A stretch of 64,000 nt of DNA from the NCBI RefSeq assembly GCF_048403405.1, contig NZ_CP183129.1. The stretch is one strand, 5' to 3'. Under the pieces are notes generated by a model. That model did no database searches, was not told the origin of the DNA, and saw nothing but the letters and a program-made list of their open reading frames with translations. The stretch comes from Escherichia coli (lineage in GTDB: Bacteria > Pseudomonadota > Gammaproteobacteria > Enterobacterales > Enterobacteriaceae). Each line of letters opens with the position of its first letter. Within the stretch, counting starts at the first letter, position 1. This document shows positions 618 to 39,241 of the stretch, piece by piece. The translations under genes were made by a program, and so were the position numbers.

Positions 618-1844
618 ATGGGAATTAACGAAATCATCATGTACATCATGATGTTCTTTATGCTGATAGCTGCCGTAGACAGGATCCTGTCGCAGTTCGG
701 TGGTTCTGCTCGTTTCCTCGGTAAGTTCGGTAAAAGTATCGAAGGATCAGGCGGTCAGTTCGAAGAAGGCTTTATGGCAATGGGCGCTCTGGGCCTGGCG
801 ATGGTCGGTATGACCGCGCTGGCACCGGTACTGGCTCACGTACTCGGGCCGGTGATTATCCCGGTTTACGAAATGCTCGGCGCAAACCCGTCAATGTTCG
901 CCGGAACACTGCTGGCGTGCGATATGGGCGGGTTCTTCCTCGCCAAAGAGCTGGCGGGCGGCGACGTAGCAGCGTGGCTATACTCTGGGTTAATTCTCGG
1001 GTCGATGATGGGGCCAACGATTGTGTTTTCCATTCCGGTGGCGCTCGGCATTATCGAACCTTCTGACCGTCGTTATCTGGCGCTCGGCGTGCTGGCGGGC
1101 ATTGTGACCATTCCGATTGGCTGTATTGCTGGTGGTCTGGTTGCTATGTACTCCGGTGTGCAGATCAACGGTCAGCCGGTGGAATTCACCTTTGCGCTGA
1201 TCCTGATGAACATGATCCCGGTACTTATCGTTGCGGTGCTGGTGGCGCTGGGGCTGAAATTCATCCCGGAAAAAATGATCAACGGCTTCCAGATCTTCGC
1301 CAAATTCCTCGTTGCATTGATCACCCTCGGTCTTGCTGCCGCGGTAGTGAAATTCCTCCTTGGCTGGGAACTGATCCCCGGTCTGGATCCTATCTTTATG
1401 GCCCCTGGCGACAAACCCGGTGAAGTGATGCGCGCCATTGAAGTTATCGGTTCTATCTCCTGCGTTCTGTTAGGGGCGTACCCGATGGTGCTGCTGCTGA
1501 CCCGCTGGTTTGAAAAACCGCTGATGAGCGTCGGTAAAGTGCTGAATATGAACAACATCGCGGCAGCTGGCATGGTGGCAACGCTTGCTAACAACATCCC
1601 GATGTTCGGCATGATGAAGCAGATGGATACCCGCGGCAAAGTCATCAACTGCGCCTTCGCCGTTTCCGCTGCTTTCGCCCTGGGTGACCACTTAGGCTTC
1701 GCCGCTGCCAACATGAACGCCATGATTTTCCCGATGATTGTCGGCAAGTTGATCGGCGGCGTAACGGCGATTGGCGTGGCGATGATGCTGGTGCCAAAAG
1801 AAGACGCGACCGCGGCCAAAACCGAAGCGGAGGCACAATCGTGA
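618..1844 (+). CDS. eutH: EutH, ethanolamine permease
   Basis: 408-aa polytopic membrane ORF in conserved eut context. Confidence 0.9.
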   Translation: MGINEIIMYIMMFFMLIAAVDRILSQFGGSARFLGKFGKSIEGSGGQFEEGFMAMGALGLAMVGMTALAPVLAHVLGPVIIPVYEMLGANPSMFAGTLLACDMGGFFLAKELAGGDVAAWLYSGLILGSMMGPTIVFSIPVALGIIEPSDRRYLALGVLAGIVTIPIGCIAGGLVAMYSGVQINGQPVEFTFALILMNMIPVLIVAVLVALGLKFIPEKMINGFQIFAKFLVALITLGLAAAVVKFLLGWELIPGLDPIFMAPGDKPGEVMRAIEVIGSISCVLLGAYPMVLLLTRWFEKPLMSVGKVLNMNNIAAAGMVATLANNIPMFGMMKQMDTRGKVINCAFAVSAAFALGDHLGFAAANMNAMIFPMIVGKLIGGVTAIGVAMMLVPKEDATAAKTEAEAQS

Positions 1845-34671: not shown

Positions 34672-36087
34672 ATGAAAATCAAAACTCGCTTCGCGCCAAG
34701 CCCAACAGGCTATCTGCACGTTGGCGGCGCGCGTACTGCTCTTTACTCCTGGCTTTTTGCACGTAACCACGGCGGTGAGTTCGTGCTGCGTATTGAAGAC
34801 ACCGATCTTGAGCGTTCCACGCCGGAAGCTATCGAAGCCATTATGGATGGCATGAACTGGCTGAGCCTGGAGTGGGATGAAGGTCCGTACTTCCAGACCA
34901 AACGTTTTGATCGCTACAACGCGGTGATCGATCAGATGCTGGAAGAGGGCACAGCTTATAAATGCTATTGCTCTAAAGAGCGCCTGGAAGCGCTGCGCGA
35001 AGAGCAAATGGCGAAAGGTGAGAAGCCGCGTTATGACGGTCGCTGCCGCCACAGCCATGAGCATCATGCTGATGATGAACCGTGTGTTGTACGTTTTGCT
35101 AACCCGCAGGAAGGTTCTGTTGTTTTTGACGATCAGATCCGTGGTCCGATCGAATTCAGCAACCAGGAGCTGGATGATCTGATTATCCGTCGTACCGATG
35201 GTTCTCCAACCTATAACTTCTGTGTGGTGGTTGACGACTGGGATATGGAAATCACCCACGTTATCCGTGGCGAAGACCATATCAACAACACGCCACGCCA
35301 GATCAACATTCTTAAAGCACTGAAAGCGCCGGTACCGGTTTACGCGCACGTTTCTATGATCAACGGCGATGACGGCAAAAAACTGTCCAAACGTCACGGG
35401 GCGGTCAGCGTAATGCAGTATCGTGATGACGGTTATTTGCCAGAAGCACTGCTGAACTATCTGGTGCGTCTGGGCTGGTCCCACGGCGATCAGGAAATCT
35501 TCACTCGTGAAGAGATGATCAAATACTTCACCCTGAATGCCGTCAGCAAATCTGCCAGTGCGTTCAACACCGACAAGCTGCTGTGGCTGAACCATCACTA
35601 CATTAACGCGCTGCCGCCGGAGTATGTTGCTACTCAATTACAGTGGCACATTGAGCAGGAAAATATCGATACCCGTAACGGCCCGCAGCTGGCTGATCTG
35701 GTGAAACTACTGGGTGAACGCTGCAAGACGCTGAAAGAGATGGCACAGAGCTGCCGCTATTTCTACGAAGATTTTGCTGAGTTCGATGCCGACGCCGCGA
35801 AAAAACATCTGCGTCCGGTAGCGCGTCAGCCGCTGGAAGTGGTTCGTGACAAACTGGCCGCGATTACTGACTGGACCGCTGAAAACGTTCATCACGCTAT
35901 TCAGGCGACGGCGGATGAGCTGGAAGTGGGGATGGGTAAAGTTGGTATGCCGCTGCGTGTCGCCGTAACCGGTGCGGGGCAGTCTCCGGCGCTGGATGTT
36001 ACCGTTCACGCAATCGGTAAGACCCGCAGTATCGAGCGTATCAACAAAGCGCTGGCTTTTATTGCTGAACGCGAAAATCAGCAGTAA
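34672..36087 (+). CDS. gltX: GltX, glutamyl-tRNA synthetase
   Basis: 471-aa ORF with HIGH-type motif (PTGYLHVGG) and KMSK-type motif (KLSKR). Confidence 0.95.
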
Positions 36088-36103
36088 TTAGCGCATAAAA
36101 GAT

Positions 36104-36136
36104 AAACGGCAGGAGAGATACCCCTGCCGTTTTTTA
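36104..36136 (+). terminator. Rho-independent terminator after gltX
   Basis: aacggcagg agagatac ccctgccgtt followed by tttttt. Confidence 0.7.
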
Positions 36137-36210
36137 TTTATCCGGTGCGCCGTAAAACCCCGTCCTTCAGGGCGGGGATATAAGGCGCGGTTTTCCACCT
36201 GACCAGGTGT

Positions 36211-36630
36211 TTGCTGTTGTTCAATGTATTGGCGGATGACGGATATTGGCGCACCTCCGCAGCTACTGGCAAAATAGCCAGGACTCCACAAAACGCCTTT
36301 GTAGTAATACCTGACGGCAATATCTGGTCGATCTCGTCGCAGTCACCTACCCGATACGCCTTTGAGGCTGTTTACCAGACTGGATATCGCCAGTTTGGGA
36401 GGATAGTTAATTAACAAATGGACGTGATCTGGTTCGCCATCCATTTCAACCAGTTCAGCTTCAAAATCAGCACATACCTTTGAAAAGTAAGTGCGTAGTT
36501 TTTCTGTCGCGTCATGGTCAAAAATCTGGCGTCGGTATCTGGTGACAAAGACCAGGTGAACATGCATCAGGAAAACACAATGCCTTCCACGCCGGATATC
36601 GGTTTCTTTTTTCACAGACCAAAGTATCAT
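36211..36630 (-). pseudogene. tnpA: tnpA (IS200/IS605 Y1 HuH transposase) interrupted by an in-frame TGA at 36343-36345
   Basis: N-terminal ORF 36343..36630 carries HuH (PDHVHLLI); the same frame continues after the stop through RLRRDRPDIAVRYYYKGVLWSPGYFASSCGGAPISVIRQYIEQQ (ORF 36088..36291). Confidence 0.7.
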
Positions 36631-36637
36631 TTGGCCT

Positions 36638-37846
36638 GTGAAACGACTACAGGCATTTAAATTCCAGTTAAGACCCGGTGGTCAACAGGAGCGTGAAATG
36701 AGGCGCTTCGCAGGCGCATGTCGTTTCGTTTTCAATCGTGCTCTGGCGCTTCAGAATGAGAATCATGAGGCCGGTAATAAATACATCCCTTACGGGAAAA
36801 TGGCTTCCTGGCTGGTTGAGTGGAAAAACGCCACTGAAACGCAATGGCTTAAAGATTCGCCCTCACAGCCATTGCAACAGTCACTGAAAGACCTTGAGCG
36901 GGCTTACAAAAACTTCTTCCGGAAGCGGGCTGCTTTTCCCCGATTCAAAAAGCGGGGACAGAATGATGCATTCCGCTACCCGCAGGGCGTTAAGCTCGAT
37001 CAGGAAAACAGCCGTATTTTTCTGCCGAAACTTGGCTGGATGCGCTACCGGAATAGCCGTCAGGTCACGGGTGTTGTGAAAAATGTCACTGTCTGCCAGT
37101 CCTGCGGTAAGTGGTACATCAGTATTCAGACAGAAAGTGAAGTATCAACTCCGGTTCACCCTTCAGCATCAATGGTCGGGCTGGATGCTGGCGTGGCTAA
37201 ACTCGCCACGCTGTCAGATGGCACAGTCTTTGAGCCTGTAAACAGTTTTCAGAAAAACCAGAAGAAGCTGGCGAGACTTCAGCGACAGTTAAGCCGCAAG
37301 GTCAAATTCAGCAACAACTGGCAGAAGCAGAAACGCAAAATACAGCGACTGCATTCCTGTATCGCAAATATCCGCAGGGACTACCTTCATAAAGTCACAA
37401 CGACCGTCAGCAAAAACCACGCAATGATAGTCATTGAGGATTTGAAGGTCAGTAACATGTCAAAGTCAGCAGCGGGTACGGTCAGCCAGCCGCGGCGCAA
37501 TGTCCGGGCAAAATCAGGTTTAAACCGTTCGATACTGGATCAGGGCAGGTATGAAATGCGCCGCCAGCTTGAGTACAAGCAGCTCTGGCGTGGCGGTCAG
37601 GTGCTTGCTGTTCCGCCAGCGTACACAAGCCAGCGTTGCGCGTGCTGTGGTCATACAGCGAAAGAAAATCGCCTGTCACAAAGTCAATTCAGATGCCAGG
37701 TATGTGGATATACAGCGAACGCCGATGTAAACGGCGCTCGTAACATTTTAGCGGCGGGGCACGCCGTTCTTGCCTGTGGAGAGATGGTGCAGTCAGGCCG
37801 CCCGTTGAAGCAGGAACCCACCGAAATGATTCAGGCGACAGCCTGA
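36638..37846 (+). CDS. tnpB: TnpB (IS605 OrfB-type RuvC-like nuclease), 402 aa, GTG start
   Basis: N-terminal KFQLRP...FNRAL; RuvC-I GLDAGV, RuvC-II VIEDLK, CxxC...CxxC zinc finger (CACCGH...CQVCGY), Ruv[13 protein letters not shown]. Confidence 0.85.
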
Positions 37847-37901
37847 ACGTAGCAGGGATCCTCGTCATTCAGGGCGTGGAGGATGTCAAGCTGATTCATC
37901 T
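37700..37901 (+). ncRNA. Predicted TnpB-associated right-end guide RNA (omega RNA) region; extent not determined
   Basis: Inferred from the known organisation of IS200/IS605 elements (RNA overlaps the tnpB 3' end and right end, guide read from flank); no sequence-level proof here. Confidence 0.3.
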
Positions 37902-38170
37902 ATGTCGAGACGAGCAAGGAAATTACGAATTCCTTCGCGTGACAAAAATTGCGCAACTTTTTCCTGCTCACTGTGAGTCATGTTGTCTATTGCGCTGATG
38001 ATTTGCCGATAAGCAGGAGTGCGAATCCCCGGTGCGTATTCGGCAAGGGGTTCTTCGGCTTCCAGAAGCATCGGCGTGTTATGGAAGGCTGGCGTGTTCT
38101 GAATAAACTCGCAAACTTGCGTATCGACCAGAATAAGTCTGGCACGACCGCCTTTCACGCCAGGAAATTT
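37886..38170 (-). pseudogene. yfeD: yfeD 3' segment (codons 37-130) of an HTH-type DNA-binding protein split by the IS110-family insertion
   Basis: ORF 37886..38158 plus in-frame upstream codons KFPG; paralogous to yfeC. Confidence 0.8.
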
Positions 38171-38236
38171 AATGAGATGGTCACTCCCTCCTTCCCGGTA
38201 CTATGCTGAGGACAGGCTTTCATTCGGAGAACTATC

Positions 38237-39241
38237 ATGGAAAACATTGCGCTCATTGGTATCGATCTGGGTAAAAACTCTTTCCATATTCATTGCCAGG
38301 ATCGTCGCGGGAAGGCTGTTTACCGTAAAAAATTTACCCGGCCAAAGTTGATCGAATTTTTGGCGACATGCCCCGCTACAACCATCGCAATGGAAGCCTG
38401 TGGCGGTTCTCACTTTATGGCACGCAAGTTGGAAGAGTTGGGGCATTCCCCAAAGCTGATATCACCACAATTTGTCCGCCCGTTCGTTAAAAGCAATAAA
38501 AACGACTTTGTCGACGCCGAAGCTATTTGTGAAGCTGCATCGCGTCCGTCTATGCGTTTTGTGCAGCCCAGAACGGAATCTCAGCAGGCAATGCGGGCTC
38601 TGCATCGTGTCCGTGAATCCCTGGTTCAGGATAAGGTAAAAACAACCAATCAAATGCATGCTTTTCTGCTGGAATTTGGCATTAGCGTTCCCCGAGGAGC
38701 TGCCGTTATTAGCCGACTGAGTACCATTCTTGAGGATAATAGTTTGCCTCTTTACCTCAGCCAGTTATTGCTGAAATTACAACAGCATTATCACTATCTT
38801 GTTGAGCAGATTAAAGATTTGGAATCCCAGTTGAAACGAAAGTTGGACGAAGATGAGGTTGGACAGCGCTTGCTGAGCATTCCCTGCGTCGGAACACTGA
38901 CAGCGAGTACTATTTCAACTGAGATTGGCGACGGGAAGCAGTACGCCAGCAGCCGTGACTTTGCGGCGGCAACAGGGCTTGTACCTCGGCAGTACAGCAC
39001 GGGAGGTAGGACGACATTGCTGGGAATTAGTAAGCGAGGTAATAAAAAGATCCGAACTTTGTTGGTTCAATGTGCCAGGGTATTCATACAAAAACTGGAA
39101 CACCAGTCTGGCAAATTGGCCGATTGGGTCAGGGATTTACTGTGCCGGAAAAGCAACTTTGTCGTCACTTGTGCTCTGGCAAACAAGCTGGCCAGAATAG
39201 CCTGGGCCCTAACGGCACGACAGCAAACTTATGTAGCATAA
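38237..39241 (+). CDS. IS110-family DEDD transposase/recombinase, 334 aa
   Basis: N-terminal RuvC-like motifs (IGIDLGK, MEACG, DFVDAEA) and C-terminal domain with conserved Ser (VPRQYSTGG). Confidence 0.85.
   Translation: MENIALIGIDLGKNSFHIHCQDRRGKAVYRKKFTRPKLIEFLATCPATTIAMEACGGSHFMARKLEELGHSPKLISPQFVRPFVKSNKNDFVDAEAICEAASRPSMRFVQPRTESQQAMRALHRVRESLVQDKVKTTNQMHAFLLEFGISVPRGAAVISRLSTILEDNSLPLYLSQLLLKLQQHYHYLVEQIKDLESQLKRKLDEDEVGQRLLSIPCVGTLTASTISTEIGDGKQYASSRDFAAATGLVPRQYSTGGRTTLLGISKRGNKKIRTLLVQCARVFIQKLEHQSGKLADWVRDLLCRKSNFVVTCALANKLARIAWALTARQQTYVA

Follow-up and report, generated by a model that had tools for sequence, protein, structure and literature searches.

Guide RNAs of TnpB-encoding elements

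IS608 of Helicobacter pylori inserts 3′ of the tetranucleotide TTAC, carries subterminal hairpins at both ends, terminates on the right in TCAA, and encodes tnpA and tnpB in the same direction. Its IS200/IS605-family relative IS609 is likewise a catalogued element, with a published ωRNA scaffold and a published target/transposon-adjacent motif (TAM), TTAT, and donor-joint targeting, in which a TnpB programmed by the flank cleaves the site that its element has left, is established for relatives of IS609 (the model is set out in bioRxiv 10.1101/2023.03.14.532601). The text of PMC12781874 describes the purification and testing of an IS609-type TnpB among nine candidates, of which another, and not the IS609-type protein, is named the most active; Table S3 of that paper gives a 207-nt “IS609 omega-RNA scaffold” ending in ...GGGGAGGAUGUCAA, and Table S2 places TTAT before the guide. 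As listed in the same source, the scaffolds of ISDra2, ISDge10, and ISYmu1 present a UUNA-loop hairpin (UUUA) and then ...UCAA before the guide. For ISDra2 of Deinococcus radiodurans, we rely on the scaffold of that Table S3, which cites Karvelis 2021, and on the structures 8h1j, 8bf8, and 8exa.

Two further groups of RNAs bear on the subject. HgcC and the sotRNAs are described, in the passages of PMC4615843 on tnpB, as sense transcripts that overlap IS1341-type tnpB genes at their 3′ ends; the same passages describe the UUCA tetraloop motif of the sotRNAs and report, in 2015, RNA-seq evidence for sense transcripts over tnpB 3′ ends in E. coli K-12. RAGATH-18 is the kink-turn core of the guide RNAs of IS607 TnpB proteins (PMC11061315).

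Here, we compare with these systems an IS609 copy in a 64,000-nucleotide stretch of Escherichia coli contig NZ_CP183129.1 (the window). We conclude that positions 37683..37905 very likely constitute the guide-RNA module of this copy, which would direct its TnpB to the empty gltX-yfeD junction. What the analysis adds to the published record is the exact boundary and guide of the window copy and, for the IS609 clade, a model of four helices backed by covariation.

An IS609 copy between gltX and yfeD

The locus runs from gltX (+ strand) through the gltX terminator and IS609 to the 3′ end of yfeD on the − strand (Table 1). In a megablast search of 5,426 complete E. coli genomes, the window element matches copies annotated as IS609 at 98-100% identity, and copies at 98-99% identity occupy other loci in most E. 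coli genomes; between the window element and copies at other loci there are 23-34 differing positions (98-99% identity). The counterpart in TUM14771 is 100% identical and carries the RefSeq annotations “IS200/IS605-like element IS609 family transposase” and “RNA-guided endonuclease InsQ/TnpB family protein”. Near-identity to catalogued copies along the full length and a Y1 tnpA divergent from tnpB identify the element as IS609.

Table 1. Coordinates of the IS609 copy, its flanks, and its predicted guide-RNA module within the window
Feature	Position	Strand	Basis or remark
gltX	34672..36087	+	Followed by its terminator, then IS609
TTAT, target/transposon-adjacent motif, directly 5′ of the left end	36138..36141	+	Precedes 5 of 5 copies; PMC12781874 Table S2
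IS609 copy, IS200/IS605 family, 1748 bp	36142..37889	+	Identity; copy and empty-site comparison
Left-end subterminal hairpin, CCCCGTCC TTCA GGGCGGGG	36158..36177	+	Read from sequence; second-best match of model R1
tnpA pseudogene (Y1 HUH transposase)	36199..36630	−	Comparison with the intact tnpA of copy L003
tnpB, intact, 402 aa	36638..37846	+	ORF, NCBIfam, residue alignment
Predicted ωRNA scaffold	37683..37889	+	Alignment with published IS609 scaffold; model R1
Helix H1, hairpin in the codons for A-A-G-H-A-V	37751..37767	+	Compensatory double changes
Helix H2, stem with kink-turn-like internal loop (GGA / GUUGAA)	37773..37814	+	Sub-threshold RAGATH-18 match; compensatory changes
Helix H3, long hairpin across the tnpB stop codon	37817..37856	+	Covariation
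Helix H4, right-end subterminal hairpin, UUCA loop	37859..37880	+	Comparative helices 7 and 8; HgcC and sot0042 alignment
TCAA, right-end terminal tetranucleotide (transposon-encoded motif, cleavage site)	37886..37889	+	Copies, homologues, published scaffolds
yfeD 3′ fragment	37886..38170	−	Gene split in the window by an IS110-family insertion at 38171
Predicted 16-nt guide GCTGATTCATCTATGT, antisense to the last yfeD codons	37890..37905	+	First flank bases past the boundary

We mapped the element ends by comparing five IS609 copies at different loci (the window copy and copies next to yeaR/yeaQ, yedK, ydcL/ydcO, and a DUF3251 gene) with one empty gltX-yfeD site. The empty site reads ...CCGTTTTTTATTTAT|GCTGATTCATCTATGTCGAG, also given as ...TTTATTTAT|GCTGATTC, and the occupied site reads ...TTTAT|CCGGTGCGCC...GGAGGATGTCAA|GCTGATTCATC; all five insertions are preceded by TTAT, terminate in TCAA, and lack a target duplication. 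This comparison fixes the element and its TAM at the positions in Table 1, with the flank starting at 37890; the right boundary, after ...GGAGGATGTCAA, is the same when read from 60 homologous elements. An earlier note on this DNA had taken the end of a palindrome (~37884) for the end of the element and had counted TCAA as flank. The palindrome is present at ~37858..37884, but the element extends to 37889 and the comparative data favor the register 37859..37880 for the hairpin; the guide proposed in that note, TCAAGCTGATTCATCT, opens with the terminal TCAA and is thus 4 nt early, and a cleavage test on that 16-mer would be mis-designed. The scaffolds of ISDra2, ISDge10, and ISYmu1 listed in PMC12781874 independently confirm that TCAA belongs to the scaffold, since they also end in UCAA.

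The gltX terminator hairpin is followed by a T-tract, to which the TTAT at the insertion site belongs (36101..36141); gltX and yfeD are convergent, and the element thus lies precisely between the gltX terminator and the yfeD stop codon. At its other end, the insertion interrupts the final sense codon of yfeD. Without the insertion, yfeD ends in GCA-TAA, its stop codon falling in the TAM (TTAt); with it, the gene ends in GC|T-TGA, where TCAA of the element contributes both the third position of the Ala codon and a replacement stop, TGA, the reverse complement of 37886..37888. YfeD is the same protein in both alleles (WP_000826499.1; 37886..37892 in the window and 689..695 in the empty-site record L002). 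The DNA beyond the palindrome is, as noted earlier, the antisense of the yfeD 3′ end, but the stop codon that had been assigned to it comes from the insertion sequence, and the guide contains only the last sense codons of yfeD and no stop codon.

The yfeD gene is also split, in the window, by an IS110-family element of 1326 bp (38171..39496) that is absent from TUM14771, which is otherwise identical over 36001..38170. Its transposase (38237..39241, + strand, 334 aa) scores 341 bits against the NCBIfam model “IS110 family RNA-guided transposase”, and the long non-coding end of the element lies on the 3′ side (~255 nt, 39242..39496), a possible place for a bridge-RNA-like transcript.

The predicted guide and its natural target

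With the boundary at 37889, the TAM and guide together reproduce the empty site, TTAT|GCTGATTCATCTATGT, which is a natural allele in other E. coli; there is no second match to the guide in the window. The uninterrupted target allele (TTAT|GCTGATTCATC...), perfectly matching the guide, is found in at least 1775 of the 5426 complete E. coli genomes, and the gltX-yfeD insertion of IS609 is found in 535 of them, including O157:H7 strains. With these numbers of occupied and perfectly matching empty genomes, the locus lends itself to a natural test of whether TnpB mediates retention in E. coli. The corresponding site of K-12 MG1655 (L088 3190..3215) is empty and has the TTAT, with mismatches at 3 of the 16 guide positions (GCTGATTCGTCAATAT), so that empty alleles fall into at least two sequence classes relative to the window guide. 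The ribonucleoprotein had been proposed in the earlier note to be aimed at the junction that its element occupies; this idea holds for the empty form of the junction, which exists in E. coli, but not for the occupied form, where the guide match is preceded by TCAA instead of TTAT. The predicted target is the empty or excised site alone.

A conserved RNA structure that ends at the transposon boundary

An initial search for homologous proteins returned near-identical E. coli proteins only, which are useless for covariation. A 50%-representative search and a scan of genome contigs produced a collection of 80 TnpB-encoding loci, 59-86% identical, from species-representative genomes; the loci were anchored on the N-A-D catalytic codons, and the downstream DNA was then aligned. 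In 65 loci, the conserved block terminates in G(A/C)GGA(T/C/A)G(T/G/C)CAA, beyond which the sequences are unrelated. Each of the 60 elements in the structure alignment, which come from many proteobacteria, has this same end and an unrelated flank, conservation stopping right after GAGGATGTCAA, and one Hahellaceae genome holds three element copies with three different flanks.

Two loci in the collection are of separate interest. The TnpB encoded on NZ_BMTT01000064.1 (2057 bp, labelled Streptomyces mutabilis) shares 82% identity with the IS609 protein of E. coli; this is as close as enterobacterial relatives are and suggests contamination or very recent transfer and not a native actinobacterial element. 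In Pseudomonas fluorescens PS910 (L039 148..314), a C4 antisense RNA (71.2 bits) with an a1/b1 target (46.9 bits), typical of the immunity regions of P1/P7-like phages, lies ~900 nt upstream of an IS609-like tnpB.

The alignment supports a structure of four helices, H1 to H4. Its 37 pairs are formed in 91.8% of 2,163 cells across the 60 sequences, as against 38-48% in a slid control with the 3′ partners moved by 1-3 columns. Both sides change at 24 of the 37 pairs, and the cells changed on both sides number 244, compared with 82.6 ± 7.9 in shuffled data, none of 500 shuffles reaching the observed count. A covariance model built from 41 homologues, the window sequence excluded (model R1), finds one high-scoring full-length match in the window, at 37718..37889 (157.3 bits, E 8e-59), ending on the mapped boundary; the next match, at 14 bits, is the left-end hairpin, which is picked up through its likeness to the right-end one. 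The published IS609 scaffold (Table S3 of PMC12781874) aligns with 37683..37889 without gaps, at 82.6% identity and with the same final base. The earlier prediction of an ωRNA at the tnpB 3′ end is thereby supported in its core: an intact tnpB ends where it was expected to, the scaffold that overlaps its last 164 nt is conserved and covarying up to the right end of IS609, and the covariance-model search proposed as a check returns a match within this segment.

Could the conservation instead reflect the coding of the TnpB C terminus together with a single-stranded DNA hairpin and cleavage site for TnpA, with no RNA function at all? Such an explanation draws on the 164 coding nucleotides among the 207 of the scaffold, on the first 30 alignment columns, which are invariant and encode the catalytic N-A-D motif, and on H4, a canonical TnpA-binding hairpin with a similar hairpin at the left end. 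H4 is both the TnpA-binding DNA hairpin and the last stem of the scaffold, and the requirement of TnpA for a DNA hairpin accounts for its covariation just as well. H1-H3, however, all sit upstream of this hairpin, and 17 of the 28 pairs in these three helices carry compensatory double changes. In H1, which lies wholly within codons, such changes occur in 22-34 of the 60 sequences at four of the six pairs, and the stem is kept while the peptide that it encodes varies (AAGHAV, RAGHAR, ERGHRL), so that coding constraint alone cannot explain the conservation. H2 has compensatory changes at pairs 57-96, 65-85, 66-84, and 70-81. In the upper part of H3, all seven pairs change on both sides, with 90-97% of cells paired, and H3 and the segment 37847..37858 are mostly non-coding yet conserved. 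The experimentally defined ISDra2 ωRNA, moreover, ends with the same architecture. We therefore regard the absence of any RNA function as highly improbable and read H1-H4 as the predicted scaffold of a guide RNA.

Several alternative structures were set aside. An H4 register pairing ATCCTC with GAGGAT (37858-63 with 37879-84) is perfect in the window, but was rejected for the family, in which position 145 pairs with position 160 in 57 of the 60 sequences. RNAalifold run on a MAFFT alignment yielded just 23 pairs, the variable loops being mis-gapped, and its long-range pairing between the N-A-D codons and GGAUGU has no compensatory support. A covariation scan of all column pairs, for example for pseudoknots, returned isolated pairs only, bar a possible extension of H1 (37750 with 37770). 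Folded as single sequences, 37700..37905 and 37740..37889 are not significantly more stable than shuffled ones (z −1.5 and −1.85), and the minimum-free-energy structures, which conflict with the comparative structure, were discarded. In 11 homologues, the H4 loop carries an insertion of 25-45 nt (read at the 3′ ends, alignment A2 columns 223-291) that resembles one or two extra hairpins; the right-end hairpin thus appears to tolerate nested insertions.

A promoter scan of the + strand inside tnpB found no σ70-like site; an internal promoter would be needless if the RNA were processed from the tnpB transcript. The tnpB gene of K-12 is insQ of IS609, and our literature search on insQ together with sRNA or Hfq returned nothing.

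A dead transposase and an intact TnpB

In the window copy, codon 96 of tnpA is changed from TTA to TGA (36343..36345), which truncates the product ahead of the catalytic tyrosine, and the stop codon (36199..36201) is also lost; a 100%-identical record annotates the gene as a pseudogene with an internal stop. The repaired reading frame scores 146.7 bits against the NCBIfam model transpos_IS200. Of the five IS609 copies examined, four (window/L001, L004, L005, and L006) have a defective tnpA. A full-length tnpB is found in all but one of the five, the exception encoding a TnpB shortened to 385 aa. In the window, the tnpB product scores 380.8 bits against the NCBIfam model guided_TnpB (cutoff 100); among natural proteins of solved structure, ISDra2 TnpB (8h1j and 8bf8) is its best match (E 7.5e-53). 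It has the RuvC residues D183, E267, and D363 and the CxxC pairs C334/C337 and C353/C356, and these acidic residues and cysteines show little or no variation across 30 aligned relatives.

Decay of the transposase raises the question of whether the entire module is a fossil, carried by an immobile and vertically inherited IS609 whose TnpB and ωRNA are poorly active or unexpressed and have not yet been degraded. The two lesions in tnpA, the recurrence of tnpA pseudogenes, and the shortened TnpB would all fit such a history. So would the E. coli scaffold, which is mismatched at consensus pairs (A·C at 37782/37802 and U·U at 37862/37877, and in the window copy additionally A·G at 37867/37872), and the ωRNA region, which among the E. 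coli copies is no better conserved than the rest of tnpB. Pairwise dN/dS values for tnpB among the five E. coli copies, which rest on small counts, include one of 0.87, and the text of PMC12781874 does not give the activity of the IS609-type TnpB. Most of these dN/dS values, however, fall between 0.2 and 0.4, the full-length tnpB retains every catalytic and zinc residue, the scaffold still scores 157 bits against the family model, and a transcript over tnpB is reported for K-12 in the tnpB passages of PMC4615843. On balance, we consider a fossil unlikely and favor a guide-RNA module whose cognate TnpB is intact.

A model for targeting of the empty junction

The steps that could lead from the components described above (defined ends, a TAM, an intact TnpB, a covarying scaffold, and a naturally existing target allele) to an effect on the population are modelled on ISDra2 and the Geobacillus stearothermophilus elements; this applies to transcription and processing, ribonucleoprotein formation, cleavage, and the eventual retention or homing. 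We posit that the tnpB transcript, or one overlapping the tnpB 3′ end, would give rise to a ~200-nt ωRNA scaffold that comprises H1-H4, ends in GGAGGAUGUCAA, and continues into ~16 nt copied from the flank, GCUGAUUCAUCUAUGU. Loaded with this RNA, the 402-aa TnpB would carry out RuvC cleavage wherever TTAT is followed on its 3′ side by a match to the guide. The target would be the empty gltX-yfeD junction, present either as the donor joint after precise excision or as an uninterrupted allele acquired from another strain; with TCAA before its guide match, the occupied site would be spared. As tnpA is dead in the window copy, excision would need TnpA supplied in trans from another copy.

The loss of tnpA allows a bolder proposal: that a transposase-dead IS609 copy keeps its TnpB and guide RNA as an allele-guarding nuclease. 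If so, a ribonucleoprotein present in ~10% of E. coli would cut any incoming uninterrupted gltX-yfeD allele, which matches the guide perfectly in ~1/3 of sequenced genomes, and recombination would be biased toward retaining, or converting to, the occupied allele with no need for transposition. We think this distinctly improbable.

Comparison with known guide RNAs

IS609 resembles IS608 in its insertion 3′ of a tetranucleotide, its subterminal hairpins, and its TCAA right end, and differs in the tetranucleotide itself (TTAT instead of TTAC) and in having divergent instead of co-directional genes.

Against Rfam, the region gives nothing at gathering-level scores, and three sub-threshold matches, to RAGATH-18, HgcC, and sot0042, all fall within the scaffold region. 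The RAGATH-18 match (RF03064, 37773..37816; 25.4 bits, gathering 44.9) reflects a shared kink-turn-containing stem, CCUGUGGAG...CGUUGAAGCAGGAA, whose inner stem-loop measures 44 nt in the model and 17 nt in the window. The score lies below threshold and the transposase is of the IS200-type Y1 class, and we do not assign the region to the RAGATH-18/IS607 guide RNAs. IS607 elements combine a serine recombinase with AG-rich TAMs and a guide RNA outside the ORF (PMC11061315), whereas IS609 combines a Y1 HUH TnpA with TTAT and a predicted RNA that overlaps the ORF. The HgcC match (RF00062, 37783..37900) reaches 15.6 bits in the window and up to 34.8 bits in homologous elements, below the gathering score of 50, and the region is thus not a member of the Rfam HgcC family; the sot0042/sotRNA model (RF02656) matches the terminal hairpin at 10.3 bits (gathering 88). 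Both models align to the terminal UUCA hairpin and GGAGGAxGUCA and have a variable tail at the position of the guide, but their seed families are archaeal and their window scores are low.

Like the predicted IS609 RNA, the ISDra2 guide RNA overlaps the tnpB 3′ end, contains the module xxUGGAG...CGAAGxxxxGAAUC, and closes with a UUUA/UUCA-loop hairpin and then GAGG(A)U(G)UCAA directly before the guide; the TnpB proteins are homologous (E 7.5e-53). The two differ in their TAMs (TTGAT in ISDra2, TTAT in IS609) and in the extra H3 that IS609 has between the kink-turn stem and the terminal hairpin, and their scaffolds are barely alignable beyond the conserved motifs.

Another close counterpart is the published IS609 scaffold itself. 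As given in Tables S2 and S3 of PMC12781874, it is likewise the last 207 nt of its element, has the GGAGGAUGUCAA end, and is used with a TTAT TAM 5′ of the guide; it derives from a more distant IS609-type element and was joined to a synthetic guide (ASFV p72), whereas the guide in the window is the natural yfeD flank. The region shares its strand with tnpB, takes in the 3′ end of that ORF, and extends to the boundary at 37889; its structure covaries, conservation stops at the transposon end, the cognate TnpB is intact, and the TAM and guide together equal the empty site. By every sequence-level criterion tested, it is a predicted RNA of the TnpB ωRNA class. The feature is real, ordinary, and already described for IS609.
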